Positions 8,476-36,428 of a stretch of 64,000 bases of DNA are shown here, one piece after another. The notes under the pieces are model-generated. The model had not been told where the DNA came from, searched no databases, and was given only the letters and a program-made list of their open reading frames with translations. The stretch's first letter is position 1. Each line of letters begins with the position of its first letter. Source of the DNA: Candidatus Omnitrophota bacterium (lineage in GTDB: Bacteria; Omnitrophota; Gorgyraeia; Zapsychrales; Zapsychraceae); NCBI GenBank assembly GCA_035292445.1, contig DATDQB010000020.1, forward strand, positions 155,484 to 219,483, read 5' to 3'. The translations under genes were made by a program, and so were the position numbers.

Positions 8476-9534
8476 TTGTTCTCTAAAATAACGATATATA
8501 TGGATAATAATATTGATAAAGAGAGACGATTTCAGACCGTTTGCCTGCTCATTTTAAGCATCATCGCGATCGCCTTCGCTTTATACTGGTTAAAACCGAT
8601 GATGATCCCTTTCGTCTTGGCCCTTTTCTTCAGCCTTATCCTGACCTCATTGATCGACTTCCAAATAAAATATTTCAAGGTCCCCCGTTTCCTGGCGCTT
8701 ACAACGACCCTTATTATCGGGATTTTGATCTTGATCACCCTGGGGCTTTTGATCTCCGTTTCCGTCACCCAGATGCTGGTCAATTTCGATTCCTACCAGG
8801 AAAAGGTCTTTCAACTTCTTAACAAAGCCGCCCTCTCTCTTAATGTGGAGCGTTTTGGGATGAACCCTCAGGAAATATTGGATCCTTTAAAAAATAATCT
8901 GACTAAAAGTGTCGGGGGAATGGTGATCGGCATCGTCAATTCGATCGTTAAGCTTCTTTCGCAGGGGCTCCTTGTCCTTATCTTTGTCTGCTTTCTTCTT
9001 TTGGGAAAAACGATCCAGACGAAACCGCCCGGCAAAGAATGGAAAGAAGGCGTGTATCGGGTAAAACGCTTCATCGCGACCAAAATGGCCGTTTCCATCG
9101 TTACCGGAGTTTTGGTGGGGGCGGCGCTGATGATCTTAGGAGTTGATATGGCGCTGGCCTTCGGGTTGTTCGCCTTTATCCTTAATTTCATCCCCAGCAT
9201 CGGCTCGACCATCGCCACCCTTCTTCCCTTACCGGTTGTCCTCATCAATCCCGACATCACGCCTTTGACAGGGTTTCTCGCGATCGCTATTCCCGGTGTA
9301 ATTCAATTTGTAATTAGCAATTTCGTTGAACCTAAAGTGGAAGGTGATGCGCTGGAGCTGCATCCGGTGGCGGTCTTGATGGCGTTGATCTTTTGGGGAA
9401 TGATCTGGGGGATCGTGGGGATGTTCCTGGCCTCTCCCCTAACGGCCATCATGAAGATCATCTTTCAACGCATTGAATTTACCGTTCCCCTGGCCCACCT
9501 TCTTGCCGGGCGCGTTGACGATATCCAATCATAA
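8476..9534 (+). CDS. AI-2E family transporter (PerM / YhhT-like permease).
   Basis: 352-aa polytopic membrane protein with the typical AI-2E architecture (N-terminal TM pair, central loop, C-terminal TM cluster). The true start may be the internal Met at about 8500. Confidence 0.7.
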   Translation: MFSKITIYMDNNIDKERRFQTVCLLILSIIAIAFALYWLKPMMIPFVLALFFSLILTSLIDFQIKYFKVPRFLALTTTLIIGILILITLGLLISVSVTQMLVNFDSYQEKVFQLLNKAALSLNVERFGMNPQEILDPLKNNLTKSVGGMVIGIVNSIVKLLSQGLLVLIFVCFLLLGKTIQTKPPGKEWKEGVYRVKRFIATKMAVSIVTGVLVGAALMILGVDMALAFGLFAFILNFIPSIGSTIATLLPLPVVLINPDITPLTGFLAIAIPGVIQFVISNFVEPKVEGDALELHPVAVLMALIFWGMIWGIVGMFLASPLTAIMKIIFQRIEFTVPLAHLLAGRVDDIQS

Positions 9535-9541
9535 AATCTCT

Positions 9542-10993
9542 TTAAAGAAGCGGTGCGAACAGCCGCGCCAGTGAATTCCTTAATTTAGCGGCCGTCGTGA
9601 GATTGCTGAAATCTTCGAGGGTAAACTCGCGGCAGTCCTTAAGGTCTTCCATAAACTGCCTTTCGATTGCCAACGCGCAATCCTCCTCATAAATAAGCGT
9701 ATTCGTTTCATAATTGAGATGAAAACTTCGGATATCCAAGTTGGCCGTCCCGATGGAGCAAACCTGGCTGTCGATGGAGATGGTTTTGGCGTGCATAAGC
9801 CCTTTCTTATAGTGAAAGATGCGCACGCCGGCCTGAAGAAGATCCTCAAAATACGTGAACGCCGACCAATAGGGGAGCCAATGGTCAACGACGCCGGTAA
9901 TCATGATCTTCACCTCTATCCCGCTTAACGCCGCGGTCTTTAAGGCCATGAAAATGCTCGGGTCTGGGATAAAATAGGCTGATTGGATAAAAAGATGTTT
10001 CTCTGCCGACTTAATGAGCGCAAAATACAATTGCTTGATCGAAAGCCACTGCGAGTCCGGGCCCGAGGTCGAGATCTGGATCGGTAGATCATCTTTTAAG
10101 TCAAACGCCGGCCTATAATACTTCTCATCAAAAAGTTTCTTCTTGGTCGTGTTGTACCAATCGATCGTAAAAATGGCCTGATAAATGGACGTGGCCTCTC
10201 CCTCAACCCGCAAATGGGTGTCCCGCCAGAACTTAAATTTACCGCCGTTAATATATTCATCGCCGATATTGACGCCGCCATTGTAACCTATCGTGCCGTC
10301 GATGATAACGAGCTTGCGGTGATTGCGATAATTAAGCGTATGGGCCGTGAACAAAGACAAAAAATTAAAATACGGATAAATATCGATACCAGCTCCCCTT
10401 AATTCACGGATATATTTCTTGCTCAAAAACATGCATCCCCAAGAATCATACAAGATCCTGACCTCAACTCCTTTCTTGGCGCGTTCAATCAGTATCGCCT
10501 TGATCTTTTGGCCAAGTTCGTCATGGCGCCAAATATAATATTCCATATGGATGAACGCCTTGGCATTATTCAAATCCTCCAAAAGACAATCGAATTTATC
10601 TTTGCCGTGATGGAAAATTTTCAAACGATTATTGGCCGTCAATATGGAATTTGAGGTGTTGGCCAATAACTGCATCAATTCTCTTTTATAGGAAGTAGCC
10701 CATTTTGATTGAAGGTTCTCAAGCTCTGTTTCTTGCCTCTCAAGAAGCGGCTTTAAAGGATAGGCCAAATTCCCCTCGATAAACTGATGGACCAATTTAT
10801 CCTGGGCGCGGGAGCGTTTCCAGCTCCTTCCAAAAAAAACATAGGCGATAAAACCCAAAACAGGGAACAAAATAAAAAGGACCAGCCAGGCGATGGTGGA
10901 GGAAGGTTCACGGTTATCCAACAAAAGATAAATAGCCGTGATGACAAGGAAAATATAATAAACAATGATTAAAACAGAAAGTATATGATCCAT
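9542..10993 (-). CDS. cls: Cardiolipin synthase (PLD superfamily with two HKD motifs).
   Basis: Two N-terminal TM helices. HKD motifs HRKLVIIDGTIGYNGGVNIGDEY and HAKTISIDSQVCSIGTANLD. Length 483 aa, typical of ClsA. Confidence 0.85.
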   Translation of the reverse strand: MDHILSVLIIVYYIFLVITAIYLLLDNREPSSTIAWLVLFILFPVLGFIAYVFFGRSWKRSRAQDKLVHQFIEGNLAYPLKPLLERQETELENLQSKWATSYKRELMQLLANTSNSILTANNRLKIFHHGKDKFDCLLEDLNNAKAFIHMEYYIWRHDELGQKIKAILIERAKKGVEVRILYDSWGCMFLSKKYIRELRGAGIDIYPYFNFLSLFTAHTLNYRNHRKLVIIDGTIGYNGGVNIGDEYINGGKFKFWRDTHLRVEGEATSIYQAIFTIDWYNTTKKKLFDEKYYRPAFDLKDDLPIQISTSGPDSQWLSIKQLYFALIKSAEKHLFIQSAYFIPDPSIFMALKTAALSGIEVKIMITGVVDHWLPYWSAFTYFEDLLQAGVRIFHYKKGLMHAKTISIDSQVCSIGTANLDIRSFHLNYETNTLIYEEDCALAIERQFMEDLKDCREFTLEDFSNLTTAAKLRNSLARLFAPLL

Positions 10994-11001
10994 AGGGTTT
11001 G

Positions 11002-13068
11002 TTAAAGATGCTCGGCCAAGAATTCAGCCAGCCGCTCTTTCCATCCTTGATCCAGCGGCTCGGTCATTTCTTTCGATTCTTTAAAGTCGGCCTCGAATAA
11101 GCTCTCCAATATGCTCTCGACCGTCTTACTATCGGATGTCGCGAGATTTAATTCCAGGTTATCGACCAAACTCAGTTTATCAAAATTCGCCGAGCCCGTA
11201 CAGAGCCATCCGTCGTAAACGGCGGCTTTGATATGCGACATGCCCGGATAAAAAAAGACCCGGATGCCACTGCGGAACATCGTATTGGCGCTCACCACGT
11301 TATTGGCGTTCATGATATTATGGTTGCCGTGAATGGGAAGGATGACCCGCACATCCACCCCGCGCCGCCGGGCTTTGATCAGCTCATAAATGATCGTATC
11401 GTCCGAAAGATAGGAGTTATGGACATAAATATATCTTTTCGCCTCTTTAATGGCCAAAAGCTGGGCTTTATAAATCTGCGGGTCGTTAAGCCGCGTATAC
11501 AACGTCCGTAACGGCGGGTGCCCTTCATGCCCCCGGTTGACGGCGAGTTTATTAAAAACCGATTGTAAATACCCCAAATCGCCCCACGCGCCGGCATGGG
11601 CCCAGGCGATCTCGAATTCCTTCATGATCTCAGCCAATACGGGGCCCCGCACTTCCATCATCATATCATGCCAATGATAACGGTATTCCCGTCCGATGTT
11701 CATGCCGCCGGTAAAAAATAATTCTTCATCGATGATAATGGTCTTGGTATGGTCCGCCTTGAACCAGGCATTCGGCCTGACACGCACTTGAATATTGGAG
11801 CCTTTCCTTAAATAGCTTTCCATCGAAGAAGGCGGCGTAAACCCTTGGGGCAGATCTTCCGGGACTTTCCCCTCCCCCATCACCTGCCCCATCCCATCCA
11901 GCAAAACCCTGACCTTAACGCCTTCTTTAGATCTTTTCTTCAATAGATCCGCGATGGAAACGGCATAATCATCGTTATCAAAAATAAAAATACGCACGTC
12001 AATAGACTTCTTGGCAGCGATAATGGCATCGGTCAAGCGCGTAAAGAATTCATCGCCGTCGATAAGAAAATCCATGGCCCCATGAGAAGTTCTCGTGCCA
12101 AGGGTTTTATTGAGCTTGTCTTCAAAAGCCTTCAAGTCCATCCCCTCCCCCTTATACAAAGGCGGCGGGGGCGTGTTATCAAAGGCCGCCAAAGACGGTG
12201 GCTTGATGACATCGCGGGTCGTGGATTGGGCCCAGGAAAAAAGCCGTAAACTGGAACTGACCGGACGCTTCCACATCCCCAGCACATAACTGTCGAATAA
12301 CAAATAATCGGCGGATTTGACCCCTTTTTTAAGCAAGCCCTGGCGGTATTTGGCTTCATTACCGACAGGAAGCTTCAAATGGAAAGCGACCCTGTTGGCT
12401 ATATCAATATATAAAAAAGGATTGGTATAATCATCGTCATTCGCGACGGCTAACAAAATTTGCTCGGCCTCGATCGATTGTTTTGCAAGATACCCTTTCA
12501 TCGTCTCAACCATCTTGAAAGCAAGCTCCTGCTGGGTGAGTGTTTGCGCTATCTGAACATGCGCCGGCTTATCTTTGAGAGCCATGACCTGAAGATGCTC
12601 ATCGTCATCATAGAACAGAATTAACTCGTCCTCATTACTACGGATAACCGTTCCTTGGTTGGCTTCCTGGGGCGTCAGCGCGTGCGCCAGATCAAAACGA
12701 AAATCGTGCCAATGCTGCGCCGGAAGGGCCAAAATGCTCTTAAGTTGCTGCGGGCGACCTTGCCAGCGCTGCTCATCAATAATCTTTAAGGGGACAACGA
12801 TATTTTTAGACAGATTTATATCGGGGCTCTCGGTGGGATCCCAGTTGGCGTAAGCGTAAAACGTCTCATATTCGTCGCTGTCATTCCAGTAGCTGTTGAA
12901 ATGGATGTACAGTTCATTCTCTGCAACGGCAGCTTCGAGGACCTCCAGCGCGGCGGTTTGATTAATCCAGATGCGCGCCACATCGTTGAGTCTTGCCTGA
13001 GGGTCTTTGAGAAAAGAACAACCCCCTAACAAGAAAAGAGAAATAAAAAATAGGATCGCTTTTCGCAT
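11002..13068 (-). CDS. Lipoprotein of the phospholipase D family. The N-terminal domain of about 350 aa has unknown function; the C-terminal half carries two HKD motifs.
   Basis: Lipobox LFLLGGC after the start MRKAILFF. HKD motifs HTKTIIIDEELFFTGGMNIGREY and HIKAAVYDGWLCTGSANFDKLS. The start was chosen at the signal-peptide Met; the ORF runs on to 13161. Confidence 0.75.
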   Translation of the reverse strand: MRKAILFFISLFLLGGCSFLKDPQARLNDVARIWINQTAALEVLEAAVAENELYIHFNSYWNDSDEYETFYAYANWDPTESPDINLSKNIVVPLKIIDEQRWQGRPQQLKSILALPAQHWHDFRFDLAHALTPQEANQGTVIRSNEDELILFYDDDEHLQVMALKDKPAHVQIAQTLTQQELAFKMVETMKGYLAKQSIEAEQILLAVANDDDYTNPFLYIDIANRVAFHLKLPVGNEAKYRQGLLKKGVKSADYLLFDSYVLGMWKRPVSSSLRLFSWAQSTTRDVIKPPSLAAFDNTPPPPLYKGEGMDLKAFEDKLNKTLGTRTSHGAMDFLIDGDEFFTRLTDAIIAAKKSIDVRIFIFDNDDYAVSIADLLKKRSKEGVKVRVLLDGMGQVMGEGKVPEDLPQGFTPPSSMESYLRKGSNIQVRVRPNAWFKADHTKTIIIDEELFFTGGMNIGREYRYHWHDMMMEVRGPVLAEIMKEFEIAWAHAGAWGDLGYLQSVFNKLAVNRGHEGHPPLRTLYTRLNDPQIYKAQLLAIKEAKRYIYVHNSYLSDDTIIYELIKARRRGVDVRVILPIHGNHNIMNANNVVSANTMFRSGIRVFFYPGMSHIKAAVYDGWLCTGSANFDKLSLVDNLELNLATSDSKTVESILESLFEADFKESKEMTEPLDQGWKERLAEFLAEHL

Positions 13069-13200
13069 AAGACTTTCCAGAGCCTTGCTCCAAAACGTCC
13101 GAATGATGCCAGCCGGTGTATGAACAAGCCAATTGTAACAAAGATAAATAAAAACAGCCACTCTTTATTCTTAATAAACAGCGGCTGTTTTACTAAATTT

Positions 13201-15054
13201 CTAATTATAACTTAGGTTACGCGCAATAGGGGAAGGAACGGGCTTGATGTTCTGCAGGTTTTGCTCGACGAAATCTTCGAGCCTTGTCTTAAGTTCCTCG
13301 ATTTCCTCGATGGCTTGCAAACGGTATTCTTCCGTCTGCTCCACCATCTTGGGGAAAAGTTCTTTGTAATACTCGATGCCTTCCAGCATGTTGTTTTGAA
13401 ATTCTCTGAAGTACTGCAGTTTCTTCTCGGTGGGCGCATGGACGATCTTATCGAACTCTTTGATGAAATAATCGATGTAGATCTTAAGCTCTTTGACGAA
13501 CATATTCGACCGGTAAGTGCTGTTTAACAAATTCAGCCTGCCGTAGATGTGATCGACCATTTCCCTTAAGGTTGCGATTTTGGAAAAATAGGCGATATTC
13601 GGCCCCGGGCAGATGGCCGGAAAATGCTTGGCGGCATCCTTGACCGCGTTATTCTTGATCAAAACGCCTTCGCCTAAATCATTACAGAGGCAGGCCTTCT
13701 TGACGACTTCCTGATATTTGACATTATACGACTCATGGTCCAAATTTTGCTTACTAAGTTGTTCCAGCTTTAATTTCTGGTATTGGCGGCTGGCGGTACA
13801 GATCGGTTCTTTCGTAAATTCCGTATTGGACACCAAATACCCCTTAGGGCACGCGCTTCCCGGCTGGCCTATTTGAGAGCGCCGTTCTTTGGCGCGATCC
13901 GACGGGTTATCTCTTAGATTACTAAACGGAATGCCTAACGGTGAGACGTCGCTCATATAAATGTCTTTTTCGCCGGCTCGGGAAAGTTTCATCAACGTCT
14001 CTTGATCGACGTTCGTAACCTCAGGCACCAGCAGGAACGGCGAAGCCCACCCCGTGCCATCCAGCCCATAATATTGAAGTAAAAACTGATCTTCCAAATA
14101 CGTCCCGATGCCGCCCTGGGCGGTTATCTTCACTTCAAGCGGCTGCGAAGGACACGGCCTGTTTTGCTCTCGCAAGACCTTTTGATAAATGGCAAAAAGC
14201 TCCTCTACCAATTCAGCCCTTTTTTGTTTAAATTCTTCCAAGATCGGCCCCATCAAATACCCGTCTGTTGCGAACAAATGGCCGCCGCAATTAAGCCCCG
14301 ACTCGATACGGTACTCGGAAACCCAAATCCCTTTTTTGGCGAGGAATTTCCCTTGAATAATGGTCGAGCGGTAATCGCTGACCTTAAGGACGACTTTTTT
14401 CTTAAGGAATCCCTGTTCATCGGGAAAGAAATCATTGAATTTTTCAATATACGCATAAAGCGACCGGTTGAATCCGGCGGAAAAAACGATGGAAGATACC
14501 AAATCGCTTTGGGCATAACCGCGTAAGGCGGAGAGTGCATCCGAATATTCGGACGAAAGAGGTGTTTTATCTTTAGCAGAAAAATTGGCCCGATCGAGCT
14601 TTGTCATGATGTTGACGTTGATATCGCCAGCCACCAGTTCTTTCTTCAACTGTTCCTGGAGGCGTTTCTTCTCAACGGTACCGATAGTGGCCTTCATCTG
14701 TTCATACAAGCCATTGAGCGGTGAACTTTCCGGTAAGAGTTCGAAATATTTGGTAATCTCGCTTCCGGCTTCAAAGGCGCTTTTCTTAAGCGCCTCGAAC
14801 TTCTGCTCAACGATACGTTTGACGAGGTTCAAATAAGCCGTAATCCGTTTGGCGCGATGGTCCTCTTCATATTTGGTGATGGGCTCGTACTTTTCTTTGC
14901 TTATCTTGCAGTAATACTCGCGCATCTTCTCGATCAAGACATCGTCAACCAGAGAAATGACAGAGGAAATCCCGTATGGCGCGACCTTGACAGGCGTGTC
15001 AATCGAGAATCCCGTTCCCATGACAGGGATATGGAAGGTGTGTACTTTAGACAT
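13201..15054 (-). CDS. Hypothetical 617-aa protein with no motif I can assign. It is the first gene of the operon with the PLD lipoprotein and cls.
   Basis: Long uninterrupted ORF. It is separated from the PLD gene by 40 bp on the same strand. Glycine-rich stretches (GGHLFATDGY, ITAQGGIGTY) suggest a nucleotide- or cofactor-binding fold, but I cannot assign a family. Confidence 0.6.
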   Translation of the reverse strand: MSKVHTFHIPVMGTGFSIDTPVKVAPYGISSVISLVDDVLIEKMREYYCKISKEKYEPITKYEEDHRAKRITAYLNLVKRIVEQKFEALKKSAFEAGSEITKYFELLPESSPLNGLYEQMKATIGTVEKKRLQEQLKKELVAGDINVNIMTKLDRANFSAKDKTPLSSEYSDALSALRGYAQSDLVSSIVFSAGFNRSLYAYIEKFNDFFPDEQGFLKKKVVLKVSDYRSTIIQGKFLAKKGIWVSEYRIESGLNCGGHLFATDGYLMGPILEEFKQKRAELVEELFAIYQKVLREQNRPCPSQPLEVKITAQGGIGTYLEDQFLLQYYGLDGTGWASPFLLVPEVTNVDQETLMKLSRAGEKDIYMSDVSPLGIPFSNLRDNPSDRAKERRSQIGQPGSACPKGYLVSNTEFTKEPICTASRQYQKLKLEQLSKQNLDHESYNVKYQEVVKKACLCNDLGEGVLIKNNAVKDAAKHFPAICPGPNIAYFSKIATLREMVDHIYGRLNLLNSTYRSNMFVKELKIYIDYFIKEFDKIVHAPTEKKLQYFREFQNNMLEGIEYYKELFPKMVEQTEEYRLQAIEEIEELKTRLEDFVEQNLQNIKPVPSPIARNLSYN

Positions 15055-15255
15055 ATTTTCTCATAATAGATTACTTATATTATACATGTTTTGAATTAAG
15101 CCACAACGAAAATAACGTAAGAATGAATGACGGGCGTATTTATGAATATTGGGGAAAGTATACCATATTAAGAGAAAATGGCAAATTTTATATGGGGTGG
15201 GATAGAGCCTGCGTTGTGAGCCAAATGAGGACCCACAACGCCCCTGCAACCCTTA

Positions 15256-15774
15256 TCACTTACCGGGCATTCCTTCCTTGCGGTGTTCAAGGCGCTCTTT
15301 AAACCGTTCTTTATTGAACTTGCCTTTATGGTCTTCTTTTAGCTCCTGGAATTTCGTAAACTGTTCCGGCGTAAGGATTTTACGCACTTCAAACATCCCG
15401 TTCAAGCGATGCTCGGCCATCTTGCCCTGTAAAGTATTAACCTCATTACTAATGGCCCTGACCTTGCCTTCATCGAAATCCGCTTTTTGGATCTCGTTTT
15501 TGAGCTCCTCACGCTTGGCTTGAATCTGCTCTCTTAACGCCTTCATTTCACCGCGATGGGTTTCTTTGTGCTGCTTGAGGGCAGTACGCTGCTCTGGCGT
15601 CAAACCCAGCTCATCGTACATCTTGTTGACCTTCTCCTCCCAGTCCTTCTTATGCTCACCCATCTTACCGTTATCTTTCTCAGCATAAACATTAACGGAT
15701 GATACTAAGAAGAAACTTAAGATAAGCCCCAAAAATACGGCTGTTCGTTTAATGAATCGTTGGTCCATGTTCAT
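15256..15774 (-). CDS. Periplasmic Spy/CpxP-family stress protein (LTxxQ motifs).
   Basis: Signal peptide. Two LTPEQ motifs. Lys/Glu-rich helical protein of 172 aa. Confidence 0.7.
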   Translation of the reverse strand: MNMDQRFIKRTAVFLGLILSFFLVSSVNVYAEKDNGKMGEHKKDWEEKVNKMYDELGLTPEQRTALKQHKETHRGEMKALREQIQAKREELKNEIQKADFDEGKVRAISNEVNTLQGKMAEHRLNGMFEVRKILTPEQFTKFQELKEDHKGKFNKERFKERLEHRKEGMPGK

Positions 15775-15791
15775 CCACCTCCTTCTTTCCT

Positions 15792-16310
15792 TTAAAGAAA
15801 ATATTCCTCAATGGCCGTGCCGTAACTGGCCATTTCTGATTCTTCGCCATTTGATTCTTCAAAAGTGAATTCCTCTAACGCATATGCCAGGACCTGAATT
15901 TCCTCAGCCGGCGGCTTTTGTTGGGCAAGATGGTTGTCGTAAATGAGTTTAAACTGAAATACCATCACCAGCAGGACAATAGCGACCTTCACCGATGCCA
16001 TTACCACTTTAGGGGTCAGCAAAGCATCCTTAAGATGAGTTAAAAAGCCCATTAAGGGGTTCGATAAAAATGCCGGCGCGGCCTCTTCCTCTATCTGGTT
16101 TTTGATGTTCTGCCAGATAGCTTCTTCATCCAATCGAATGGGCTTGGCATTCTGCAGGGCGGTGACGGCCTTCTCTTTGGCCTCTTCGGCAAACGCCCGG
16201 CAGGCGAGACAACCGGCAAGGTGCTGGTCTATCTCTCTTCGTTTTTCTTCCCATTGTTCGCCGTCAAGAAAATCGGTTAAAATGATGTCCCGGATATCTT
16301 TACAATTCAT
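15792..16310 (-). CDS. Anti-sigma factor (zinc-binding, ZAS-like, single-pass membrane protein).
   Basis: HLAGCLACRAF zinc-finger motif. A central TM segment. It overlaps the upstream ECF sigma gene by 11 bp. Confidence 0.7.
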   Translation of the reverse strand: MNCKDIRDIILTDFLDGEQWEEKRREIDQHLAGCLACRAFAEEAKEKAVTALQNAKPIRLDEEAIWQNIKNQIEEEAAPAFLSNPLMGFLTHLKDALLTPKVVMASVKVAIVLLVMVFQFKLIYDNHLAQQKPPAEEIQVLAYALEEFTFEESNGEESEMASYGTAIEEYFL

Positions 16311-16854
16311 TTTTGACCACCTCTTGTCTTAAGGCCAGCATGGCCTCGCGCGCGCGCTTGATGCGTGAACGGACCGTGTTGATAGGGATCTTTAACGTCT
16401 GCGCGATCTCGTGATAACTTAAGCCCTCAATGCTTCGTAACACAATAACCGCTCTTTGCTCAGGGCTAAGGCCGGCCAATAATTGCGAAACAAGTTTTTC
16501 GTTGTCCATCTGATGCATGGATTCTCTGACGCTGTCGGCCCCTTGGGCAGCGAACACATCAGCGTATTCAACCGTATTTTTGTGCTTGCCGGTCCTTTTG
16601 ATATGGTTGATCGCGCAATTGACGCTGATGCGGTATACCCACGTTTTCAGCGACGACTCAAAACGAAAATTATTTAATTTGCGATAAATGTTCATGAAAA
16701 CGTCCTGGGTCACTTCCTGTGCATCTTCCATATTACCCACCACCCGATAAACCACGTTCGAGACAAAACCGACATGCGTTCTATAGATTTGCTCAAATGC
16801 CCTTAGATCACCGGCCTGGGCCTGCCTTATAATTTCTTGCGCTAGCTCGACCAT
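16300..16854 (-). CDS. ECF (sigma-70 family) RNA polymerase sigma factor.
   Basis: Region 2 signature VFMNIYRKLNNFRFESSLKTWVYRISVNCAINHIKR. Region 4 HTH SYHEIAQTLKIPINTVRSRIKRAR. Confidence 0.85.
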   Translation of the reverse strand: MVELAQEIIRQAQAGDLRAFEQIYRTHVGFVSNVVYRVVGNMEDAQEVTQDVFMNIYRKLNNFRFESSLKTWVYRISVNCAINHIKRTGKHKNTVEYADVFAAQGADSVRESMHQMDNEKLVSQLLAGLSPEQRAVIVLRSIEGLSYHEIAQTLKIPINTVRSRIKRAREAMLALRQEVVKNEL

Positions 16855-16915
16855 GGTGTTTACCCGTTCACTTGGTTAGACAGAAAAAAAGGCTAAAAGT
16901 TCCATCGCTCAAGAC

Positions 16916-17563
16916 TTACAAACTTTCCTCCTGGGGTACCCCTCGTAGCCGCTCCAAATGCATGACCATGATATTGGCCCAGATGCCTAAGACCTCTTTG
17001 GTGTGCCCCCATTTGGTGAGCCCCTTGGTGTAATTAAGCTTTTTCCCTTTCCTCGCGTCAATAAAGGCCAACACCCTCTCGCCGGTCAGGGAATCGACCA
17101 GTTCCGCCTCCAAGGAAGCGCCGCCGATGCCGGCGCCGATCAGGGTCGTGGACCAATGAAGATTAAGGTACACTTTATTGGGCAACACATCAGTCACCGC
17201 CGTCCTTAAAAGAAGCACGCCTTCTCCCGCTTCAGTTGTGATCGTATAATTTTCCTTAAGCCCGTCTTCCAGTTCCTTGTAAAAATAATCCGTCAATTTC
17301 TGCCGGTCTTCACCCTTCATCTGATGCGCCTCGACACTGGGATCTAACTTAAATTCAACCGGGGCAATGATGACCTTAGAGTAACCCTGCGCGATATTCG
17401 CGTTGGGATTCGTATATATATACATCCCTTTCGATTCCTCGTCTTCCTCCAACCCCGAGTAATCGCTTAAAAATCCTGTTTCTGTACGTTTCATTTCTAC
17501 GGTCGCACAGCCCGTCAAAACCATAAAAACAATACAATGGATAAACAAAAACCTCTTATTCAT
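16916..17563 (-). CDS. Hypothetical lipoprotein.
   Basis: Signal peptide with lipobox VLTGC. 215 aa. Confidence 0.6.
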   Translation of the reverse strand: MNKRFLFIHCIVFMVLTGCATVEMKRTETGFLSDYSGLEEDEESKGMYIYTNPNANIAQGYSKVIIAPVEFKLDPSVEAHQMKGEDRQKLTDYFYKELEDGLKENYTITTEAGEGVLLLRTAVTDVLPNKVYLNLHWSTTLIGAGIGGASLEAELVDSLTGERVLAFIDARKGKKLNYTKGLTKWGHTKEVLGIWANIMVMHLERLRGVPQEESL

Positions 17564-34415: not shown

Positions 34416-34511
34416 ATCATGCTTGGTGGCATTTTGGTTTCCCTAAATTTATGGTAACCAAAATACCACTTAAACTCGGGTTCGCCCTATGGGCTCACCC
34501 TCGTATTTAAG

Positions 34512-34901
34512 TGGAGGTGCCGGGAATCGAACCCGGGTCCTCAAGTAACTTTCTAAAAGCCTCTACATGCTTAGACTGTTTTTAAGTTTCGTCCTGATTT
34601 TCTAAACAGACAAACGGACCAGGACCAGCCTTTAGGATCTCGCCCACATGAATAAGGCGTTCATATGAGCCAGCCTGCCAATGACCTTATTGCCCGCTCA
34701 CAGGCTAAGCAAGCATAAGGGCGCTGCGCTATTAGGCAGCGACTGTTTCGCCAGCGAAAATCGGGTTAACGATTTCGTTAGCTTGGGCTAAGATTGAATC
34801 TTCGCCGTTTAATTGGTGCTTGGGCTGATTAACGAGGCCAACCAAGCGTCCTCGGCATGCCACTGATAGTCCATCGACTCAAGTCGAGACCGATCACCCC
34901 C
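34512..34901 (-). ncRNA. ssrA: tmRNA (SsrA), one-piece, about 390 nt. The 3' CCA is not encoded.
   Basis: 5' GGGGGUGAUCGGUCUCGAC... and 3' ...GGACCCGGGUUCGAUUCCCGGCACCUCCA form the tRNA-like domain. Internal GCAUGCCGAGG and UUGGCCUCG elements are present. The tag ORF ...GCU AAC GAA AUC GUU AAC CCG AUU UUC GCU GGC GAA ACA GUC GCU GCC UAA UAG gives (A)NEIVNPIFAGETVAA followed by two stops. Confidence 0.9.
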
Positions 34902-36216: not shown

Positions 36217-36231
36217 GTGAGAAATCTACTT

Positions 36232-36313
36232 GCGGAAGTGGTGGAATTGGTAGACACGCAGGTCTCAGAAGCCTGTGCTTCACGGCATGAGAGTTCAAGT
36301 CTCTCCTTCCGCA
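36232..36313 (+). tRNA. tRNA-Leu (anticodon CAG), type II with a long variable arm.
   Basis: Acceptor GCGGAAG/CUUCCGC plus discriminator A. Anticodon stem CAGGU/GCCUG with loop CUCAGAA. T arm GAGAG-UUCAAGU-CUCUC. Confidence 0.9.
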
Positions 36314-36428
36314 TTTATCATTTCAGATAAAGGAAATTTTCTTGCAACTTCCCGCAAAGCATACTAGAATGTTGGGACAATTTTAAGAATATTAAAATAA
36401 TATTAATAATTATTAATAATACCTGCCT

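Follow-up and report, generated by a model that had tools for sequence, protein, structure and literature searches.

A predicted flavoenzyme gene and a phospholipase D-cardiolipin synthase gene pair as probable separate transcription units in an Omnitrophota bacterium

We analyze three consecutive minus-strand genes in a 64,000-nucleotide stretch of the genome of a Candidatus Omnitrophota bacterium (assembly GCA_035292445.1, contig DATDQB010000020.1; hereafter the window, numbered from its first letter). In order of transcription they encode a 617-amino-acid (aa) protein, a lipoprotein of the phospholipase D (PLD) superfamily and a cardiolipin synthase of the ClsA type (Table 1). All three are real genes, since each has many conserved homologs, and the listing of open reading frames (ORF) bears out the coordinates given for them in a previous sequence-only reading of the window. 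That reading interpreted the genes as one operon and a dedicated module for membrane phospholipid remodeling. Our results point instead to two independent transcription units that are probably neighbors only in this lineage, one consisting of a predicted flavoenzyme gene and the other of the PLD-ClsA pair.

Results

Transcriptional organization of the locus

Ten nucleotides past the stop codon of the 617-aa gene starts a 41-nt hairpin with a folding free energy of -21.7 kcal/mol (z = -5.62), equaled by none of 200 shuffled sequences, and the hairpin and the U-run that follows it read as a textbook intrinsic terminator. Directly after this predicted terminator lies TGTTACAAT, a putative extended -10 element for the PLD-cls pair that was read by eye from the sequence, has no -35 element and does not figure in the promoter scan list. 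On the other side, the 201-bp intergenic region upstream of the 617-aa gene contains the best promoter-like match of the area, a scan candidate defined by consensus match only (10 of 12 positions, plus a TG extension).

The middle ORF was first listed as 11002-13161, yielding 719 aa when read from a GTG. This GTG falls within the 3' arm of the terminator hairpin, homologs of the PLD protein start at their signal peptide and lipobox, and one public gene call (L002) is also 688 aa long; for these reasons we place the true start at the ATG at 13068. The 31-aa extension (13069-13161, minus strand) present in the public 719-aa calls (P0271, L001 and L003) is almost certainly spurious, and a practical by-product of this analysis is that the public lipoprotein gene model needs a 31-aa N-terminal trim. 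The distance between the 617-aa and PLD genes, which the sequence-only reading had put at 40 bp on the strength of the spurious GTG, is in fact 132 bp and contains both the terminator and the promoter-like element. The 8 bp that it had reported between the PLD and cls genes are correct. In the organization we propose, unit 1 (13201-15054) would be monocistronic, flanked by a promoter-like site and an intrinsic terminator belonging to it, and unit 2 (9542-13068) would be bicistronic.

Recurrence of the three genes across genomes

One genome per GTDB species was scanned, revealing relatives of the 617-aa protein in at least 598 species-level genomes. The loci of the best 81 of these relatives were extracted with 8-kb flanks, which were searched by BLASTP with both PLD proteins of the window. 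Neither a PLD gene nor cls turned up within 8 kb of the 617-aa homolog at any of the 81 loci, and conversely a 617-aa homolog was found at none of 85 loci of PLD-lipoprotein homologs. The triad, whose presence in other genomes had been put forward as a check of the operon, was not found outside this organism. Clustering of the neighboring genes returned no conserved partner for the 81 loci of the 617 family and no universal partner for the 85 loci of the PLD lipoprotein. Same-strand neighbors at 60 bp or less from the 617-family gene are infrequent (4 of 76 loci upstream, 9 of 76 downstream), and the recurrent neighbors of the family are either generic regulators or components of an Omnitrophota-specific synteny (thiC, radical-SAM/BATS, 2-oxoacid:ferredoxin oxidoreductase and Fe-S assembly genes). 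The 617-aa homolog stands alone in three further Omnitrophota, where it is convergent with thiC and divergent from the radical-SAM/BATS and 2-oxoacid:ferredoxin oxidoreductase genes. A 73%-identical homolog (L092) has other neighbors, and in the Omnitrophota genome GCA_029261065 the homologs of the 617-aa protein and of the PLD lipoprotein reside on separate contigs (L007 and L012).

Only the closest relatives keep the PLD-ClsA pair (PLD identity 64-77%; L097, L103, L091 and the P0272 contig). It is present in all four closest relatives with downstream sequence, with a gap of 1 bp on the P0272 contig, and the two-gene unit hence survives in a narrow clade. Where upstream sequence is present, in L091 and on the P0272 contig, the gene preceding the pair is not a 617-aa homolog. 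Of the linkage initially described, the tight association of one lipoprotein with one integral-membrane ClsA stands, and the inclusion of the 617-aa gene does not. As a separate observation, proteins of about 240-255 aa, either unmatched in Pfam or with a faint match to MORN_2, take the place of cls after distant PLD-lipoprotein homologs at three loci (L008, L009 and L090).

An unannotated family with a predicted NMO/FabK/FabX-type fold

The public annotation of an identical 617-aa sequence is hypothetical protein, and Pfam and NCBIfam scans of the protein gave no match, in agreement with the initial statement that it has no assignable sequence family. When 26 diverse family members were scanned against the same databases, a single sub-threshold match was obtained, that of P0205 to the Pfam nitronate monooxygenase (NMO) family PF03060 (E 1.4e-4; 21.8 bits, cutoff 28). 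The family is nonetheless large, comprising more than 8000 homolog clusters (90% identity) at E<=0.001, of which the top 120 are all 60-79% identical, and 1065 representatives at 50% identity. Its members are 60-79% identical across Omnitrophota. Carriers are many in Bacteroidota (Pontibacter, Runella, Maribacter, Gillisia, Ancylomarina, Chitinophaga and others) and occur also in Ignavibacteriota, Planctomycetota, Zixibacteria, Elusimicrobia, Acidobacteriota, Desulfobacterota and Gemmatimonadota. Literature searches turned up no account of this family or of the PLD-lipoprotein family.

An AlphaFold2 model built from 22 homologs (pLDDT 74.8, pTM 0.79) alternates strands and helices, and adopts a TIM-barrel fold with an NMO-type substrate subdomain. 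Its best Foldseek match in the PDB is Helicobacter pylori FabX (9lt5, E 4.9e-8, probability 1.00), followed by the flavin mononucleotide (FMN) enoyl-reductase domains of DfnA and MlnA and yeast fatty-acid synthase. NMO-type enzymes (6bka, 3bw2, 2gjl and 6e2a), among them the NADH:quinone reductase PA1024, were matched as well, all of these with probability 1.00, and the top ten matches are without exception NMO-fold enzymes (probability 0.98 to 1.00). The profile or structure search suggested for this protein has given a divided outcome, with no family model matched, the Pfam PF03060 gathering score included, and a fold of the NMO/FabK/FabX group. Sequence comparisons are fainter: the best PDB sequence match of the divergent member P0205 is FabX at E 0.11, and hhalign of the family against small FabK alignments gives E 0.002-0.004 and a probability of 8-16%, with colinear motifs. 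PDB sequence matches of the single sequence and of the family profile were discarded as spurious, as they paired apolipoprotein and BAR coiled coils with the C-terminal helices. On the basis of the model, we predict that the 617-aa protein represents an uncharacterized, sequence-divergent family inside the NMO/FabK/FabX superfamily.

Several motifs of the family align with those of FabK. SAG192-194 is shared, GGH257-259 aligns with FabK GGH142-144, AQGGIG312-317 with AAGGIA (FabX loop counterpart AAGGI), GWASPF..PE with VQIGSRF..PE, and SPLGIPF with the P-x-R segment (P.R/F..L motif). Among the 26 diverse members, H259, G257, G258, N148, E247, E251 and S252 are invariant and QGGIG313-317 is invariant or nearly so. 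The FabX counterpart of H259, His182, is the catalytic residue beside FMN (PMC8626469). In the same enzyme, a C-terminal [4Fe-4S] subdomain (C300/C304/C308/C320) replaces the NAD(P)H site of FabK (PMC8626469). Three cysteines of the 617 family (C402, C419 and C457) do not vary across the 26 members, and three more (C455, C482 and C256) are at least 90% conserved. The cysteines from C402 to C457 lie within model segments of pLDDT below 50 (residues 396-426 and 453-460), the behavior to be expected of a metal site that the model lacks, and by analogy with FabX this Cys-rich subdomain would bind an iron-sulfur (Fe-S) cluster. The architecture is completed by a helical insertion of about 100 aa after the first strand and, at the C terminus, by amphipathic helices that span about 100 aa. 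The last 80-100 residues form long helices of this type, whose only PDB sequence matches are apolipoprotein A-I and a BAR-domain protein at E ~0.1, and which may constitute a membrane- or lipid-surface-binding tail or reflect mere coiled-coil composition.

Gene fusions and gene neighbors of the 617 family

Two fusions bear on the function of the family. In P0121 (1167 aa), the family domain is fused to a CysJ-type flavodoxin-FAD-NADPH reductase (548 bits, TIGR01931), which implies that it would receive electrons from a flavodoxin-like module. In P0151 (981 aa), found on two independent contigs (L093 and L094), it is fused to a PlsB/PlsC-type acyltransferase, providing a tie to glycerolipid acyl chains. 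The fusions suggest electron-fed redox chemistry on acyl chains. A further protein, P0131 (812 aa), combines an N-terminal TetR regulator domain with the family domain and may be a merged gene call.

Genes for the alpha and beta subunits of a 2-oxoacid:ferredoxin oxidoreductase lie within a few kb of the family gene at 10 of the 81 loci, in three phyla: L065 and L077 (Cytophagales), L023 (Ignavibacteriaceae), and L004, L005, L010, L012, L015, L017 and L019 (Omnitrophota). At L065 and L077 they are directly upstream and on the same strand. These neighbors are a weak hint at electron supply by ferredoxin. In two Chitinophagaceae genomes, a true FabK (L034:14065-15003 and L049:13541-14494; E 9e-120 to Porphyromonas gingivalis FabK 4IQL) is encoded 4-5 kb from the 617-family gene. 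Given this coexistence, the two are not interchangeable orthologs, and it would be too simple to regard the family as the enoyl reductase of these bacteria.

The PLD lipoprotein and ClsA

The cls product scores 482.8 bits against the TIGR04265 cutoff of 290, carries a PLDc_N membrane anchor at residues 14-56 with two N-terminal membrane helices, and has both HKD motifs intact. By its sequence it is a canonical ClsA, an already known enzyme, and its original assignment as a membrane-bound cardiolipin synthase is confirmed.

The middle protein has a signal peptide, MRKAILFFISLFLLGG, that ends at C17 and contains a lipobox of the L-x-[GAS]-C type (MRKAILFFISLFLLGGC), the Cys of which is shared by at least 85% of the 23 homologs that were aligned. 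We therefore class it as a predicted lipoprotein. Its two HxKxxxxD motifs reside in duplicated PLD domains (PLDc_2 E 3e-36 in two stretches), and both the motifs and the lipoprotein nature agree with what had been reported for this gene. Neither Pfam nor NCBIfam has a model that matches the N-terminal half. In an AlphaFold2 model of residues 18-322, pLDDT is about 90 for the first 220 residues and poor for the conserved linker segment; Foldseek returned nothing significant from the PDB for the N-terminal domain, the best E being 0.077, to short NTF2-like or START-like fragments. The 350-aa unassigned N-terminal domain originally described is indeed without assignment, and resolves into an alpha/beta domain of about 220 aa and a conserved linker. 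The alignment of the domain among homologs was too variable to serve as the seed of a metagenome scan. Metagenomes commonly contain full-length homologs, about 690 aa in length (38-66% identity, 94-100% query coverage), under generic annotation, and shorter ones of about 490 aa lack this domain of some 220 aa while keeping the lipobox, the PLD domains and the SYVLGMWKRPVSSSLRLFSW segment (RPVSSxxRLFxW). A Lysobacterales-labelled homolog (P0292, 49% identity) is recorded as a lead only.

The catalytic half of the lipoprotein aligns with the neighboring ClsA (25% identity over 378 aa, E 8e-23), and its best NCBIfam matches are all cardiolipin synthases below cutoff, led by TIGR04265 (141 against 290 bits) and with ClsB NF008427 (114 against 281 bits) in second place. 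On account of this alignment and of these matches, the protein is predicted to be an exported, lipid-anchored, Cls-like transphosphatidylase. It appears to be an uncharacterized architectural variant of the Cls-like PLD enzymes, with predicted co-expression with ClsA in this clade. A ClsC-like identity was considered and rejected (BLASTP E 3e-5 over 152 aa). The only PDB sequence match is the Nuc endonuclease (E 5.6e-4).

Surrounding genes

Directly upstream of the 617-aa gene lies an envelope-stress-style cluster (15256-17563) comprising genes for an extracytoplasmic function (ECF) sigma factor, a putative anti-sigma factor, a CpxP/Spy/LTXXQ periplasmic protein and a DUF3313 lipoprotein; it is not kept beside 617-family genes elsewhere. 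Downstream of the PLD-cls pair is a gene for an NHL-repeat protein, which is also found 3' of the pair on the P0272 contig (a 65%-identical relative), so that local synteny reaches past the pair; here an AI-2E family transporter gene is inserted in between. Rfam and tRNA scans of the three-gene region gave no match, and the transfer-messenger RNA (tmRNA) and tRNA genes of the window bear no relation to this region.

Table 1 Coordinates of the genes, motifs and putative signals discussed, by position in the window
Feature	Position	Strand	Description
617-aa gene	13201-15054	minus	ORF; unannotated NMO/FabK/FabX-superfamily member, predicted FMN TIM barrel
PLD-superfamily lipoprotein, 688 aa	11002-13068	minus	Start at ATG at 13068
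clsA-type cardiolipin synthase, 483 aa	9542-10993	minus	TIGR04265, PLDc_N
Predicted intrinsic terminator of 617-aa gene	13140-13191	minus	Hairpin 13151-13191, U-rich tail 13140-13150
TGTTACAAT	13132-13140	minus	Putative extended -10 promoter-like element (TGnTACAAT) for the PLD-cls pair
Sigma-70-like promoter candidate, 617-aa gene	15157-15184	minus	TTGCCA, 16-nt spacer, TG, TATACT
ESGLNCGGH, residues 251-259	14278-14304	minus	Aligned to FabK catalytic-histidine motif AEGFEAGGH
TAQGGIGT, residues 311-318	14101-14124	minus	Aligned to FMN-phosphate-binding AAGGIA loop of FabK/FabX
Cys-rich segment C402, C419, C455, C457, C482	13609-13851	minus	Candidate Fe-S-binding subdomain
C-terminal helices, residues 518-599	13258-13503	minus	Long amphipathic helices
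N-terminal alpha/beta domain of lipoprotein, mature residues 18-237	12358-13017	minus	AlphaFold2 model; three helix-plus-antiparallel-sheet units
SYVLGMWKRPVSSSLRLFSW, residues 258-279	12232-12297	minus	Most conserved part of N-terminal half
First HKD motif of lipoprotein, HTKTIIIDEELFFTGGMN (HTKTIIID)	11698-11751	minus	Pfam PLDc; H440 of 688-aa form
Second HKD motif of lipoprotein, HIKAAVYDGWLCTGSAN (HIKAAVYD)	11182-11235	minus	Pfam PLDc_2; H612 of 688-aa form
ClsA HKD motifs HRKLVIID, HAKTISID	10268-10321 and 9740-9793	minus	Both intact
CpxP/Spy/LTXXQ periplasmic protein	15256-15774	minus	Nearest gene upstream of 617-aa gene
Putative anti-sigma factor	15792-16310	minus	11-bp overlap with ECF sigma factor gene
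ECF sigma factor	16300-16854	minus	
DUF3313 lipoprotein	16916-17563	minus	
AI-2E family transporter	8476-9534	plus	Convergent with cls, 7 bp apart
NHL-repeat protein, 696 aa	5669-7759	minus	
tmRNA	34509-34901	minus	Tag peptide GEDSILAQANEIVNPIFAGETVAA
tRNA-Leu(CAG)	36231-36314	plus	

Discussion

The arrangement that we consider probable is that of two independent transcription units, with an adjacency that appears to be a chance, lineage-specific one. Unit 2 would express a lipid-anchored, Cls-like PLD enzyme with an accessory alpha/beta domain, exported, followed by the integral-membrane ClsA, and both enzymes would probably act at the periplasmic face of the envelope, in the synthesis or remodeling of head groups of the cardiolipin and phosphatidylglycerol type. 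Two points weigh against this arrangement: transcription may read through the terminator, and the PLD-ClsA pairing is missing in 56 of 59 more distant loci with at least 1.5 kb of downstream sequence, which means that cooperation between the two PLD enzymes is not a necessity. The proposal of the sequence-only reading, that the three genes are one operon in which the 617-aa protein acts with both PLD enzymes as a phospholipid-remodeling module, draws on their adjacency on one strand in the window and in the same order at L001 and L003. It may also appeal to a lipid theme common to all three genes, given that structural neighbors of the 617-aa protein use fatty-acyl chains and that one member of the family carries a fused glycerolipid acyltransferase. 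We nevertheless regard it as highly improbable in view of the strong terminator and promoter-like element between genes 1 and 2, the complete lack of linkage among the 81 and 85 homolog loci, the other neighbors of the 73%-identical homolog and the different gene upstream of the closest PLD-cls pairs. The same reading had named a match of the 617-aa protein to a well-known unrelated enzyme family with independent regulation, or a failure of the genes to co-occur elsewhere, as grounds for its own dismissal; by its predicted fold the protein falls into a well-known superfamily (NMO/FabK/FabX), the gene is preceded by a promoter-like site, followed by a strong terminator and mostly stands alone, and because the triad recurs in no searched locus we take the triad to be refuted. 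A lipid role for the 617-aa protein is plausible on grounds independent of gene linkage, as the NMO/FabK/FabX superfamily acts on fatty-acyl chains. Within unit 2, the lipoprotein could alternatively be a hydrolytic phospholipase D or nuclease-type PLD enzyme for periplasmic scavenging or defense, its adjacency to clsA having no functional meaning. Scores far under the ClsA and ClsB cutoffs, the Nuc endonuclease as sole PDB sequence match and the many homologs that stand alone without cls speak for a hydrolase, but the alignment of the catalytic half with the neighboring ClsA, the fact that all best NCBIfam matches are cardiolipin synthases and the pairing with cls, at 8 bp here, in all four closest relatives with downstream sequence make it unlikely.

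For the 617-aa protein, we envisage a reaction in which ferredoxin, flavodoxin or a CysJ-type reductase would deliver electrons to the Fe-S cluster and on to FMN, which would reduce a C=C bond beside the thioester or ester carbonyl of an acyl-ACP (acyl carrier protein), acyl-CoA or acyl lipid with the help of the conserved GGH histidine; the reverse reaction, a dehydrogenation or isomerization, would also be possible. We hold this electron flow, in either direction, to be a possibility with somewhat less than an even chance. The broader proposal that the family constitutes a new and widespread class of FMN/Fe-S oxidoreductases acting on fatty-acyl chains in Omnitrophota, Bacteroidota, Ignavibacteriota, Planctomycetota and others, and fed by ferredoxin, flavodoxin or CysJ-type modules, not NAD(P)H, is more tentative still, and we would call it rather unlikely as it stands. 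Several observations count against these assignments. The cysteine spacing (C-x16-C-x35-C-x-C-x24-C) is unlike the C-x3-C-x3-C-x11-C of FabX, so that the Fe-S cluster is predicted by analogy only, and Gly335 stands where FabX and FabK have their FMN-contacting Gln. Identity to FabX in the structural alignment is 14%, compared with at least 36-50% to HP0773 for published FabX homologs. The sequence link to NMO/FabK is weak, with no family member reaching the Pfam gathering score, and the enzyme assignment accordingly comes mainly from an AlphaFold2 model of moderate confidence. No fab, acp or pls genes recur beside family members in the 81 neighborhoods, leaving the substrate to be deduced only from structural neighbors and one fusion. 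This last observation is shared by a doubtful but serious competitor, in which the family consists of NMO-type flavoenzymes with a small non-lipid substrate, engaged in nitronate/nitroalkane detoxification, quinone reduction or cofactor biosynthesis. The presence of NMOs and PA1024 among the top structural matches fits that view, as do the Omnitrophota neighbors (thiC, radical-SAM/BATS, Fe-S assembly and 2-oxoacid:ferredoxin oxidoreductase), which are not lipid genes. Acyl-chain chemistry is favored over it by FabX as the best match, by the four of the seven top matches that are enoyl-reductase modules and by the acyltransferase fusion on two contigs, and the 60-79% identity across Omnitrophota fits a core function better than detoxification.

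As the three-gene operon is unsupported, no new membrane-remodeling module is established at this locus, and the part worth following is the unannotated 617-aa flavoenzyme family rather than the gene triad. A family of this size without Pfam or NCBIfam annotation is directly testable in culturable carriers such as Pontibacter, Runella, Maribacter, Gillisia and Ancylomarina. Acyl-chain tailoring is incompletely known in many FCB- and PVC-group bacteria, anaerobes included. If the acyl-chain assignment is true, the family could supply an enoyl reductase that dispenses with NAD(P)H or an oxygen-independent route to the introduction or isomerization of double bonds, and a new class of acyl-chain enzymes would be of interest to lipid biochemists. 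The lipid-anchored Cls-like PLD enzyme provides a second, smaller lead, on the envelope site of cardiolipin-type lipid synthesis.

Comparison with known systems

The known enzyme with most bearing on the 617 family is FabX (H. pylori HP0773; UfaA in Neisseria), an NMO-family acyl-ACP dehydrogenase/isomerase that contains FMN and a [4Fe-4S] cluster. Common to both are the TIM barrel, the GGH motif, the GGI(G/A) flavin-phosphate loop and a Cys-bearing subdomain C-terminal to the barrel, where FabK has its NAD(P)H site. The 617 family is larger (about 610 aa against about 360) and, unlike FabX, the 617-aa protein has no Pfam NMO match, bears an extra helical insertion and tail, and has Gly335 in place of Gln. 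FabX homologs proper exist separately in Bacteroidales, with about 40% identity to HP0773 (PMC11300592). FabK and the enoyl-reductase domains of DfnA, MlnA and fungal fatty-acid synthase have the same fold and colinear motifs as the 617 family, which differs from FabK in having no recognizable NAD(P)H-binding motif. For the predicted electron flow, a possible analogy is offered by FadH, a 2,4-dienoyl-CoA reductase that combines an FMN TIM barrel, a [4Fe-4S] cluster and a FAD/NADPH module to reduce an acyl C=C bond. Its electron logic (NADPH/FAD to Fe-S to FMN to C=C) mirrors the P0121 fusion; its barrel is of the Old-Yellow-Enzyme type, not the NMO type, and FadH is absent from the Foldseek matches.

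Compared with ClsA, the lipoprotein of unit 2 has a lipobox signal peptide, the domain of about 220 aa and the RPVSSxxRLFxW segment, not two membrane helices. Xanthomonas campestris Xc_0186, an accessory PLD-type Cls paralog beside ClsA to which the lipoprotein may be comparable, is a bifunctional cardiolipin/phosphatidylethanolamine synthase, indicating that other substrates are open to such paralogs (PMC4966929). Although it has no YmdB partner, unlike ClsC, the lipoprotein resembles ClsB and ClsC of Escherichia coli in being a Cls paralog without membrane helices that coexists with ClsA.

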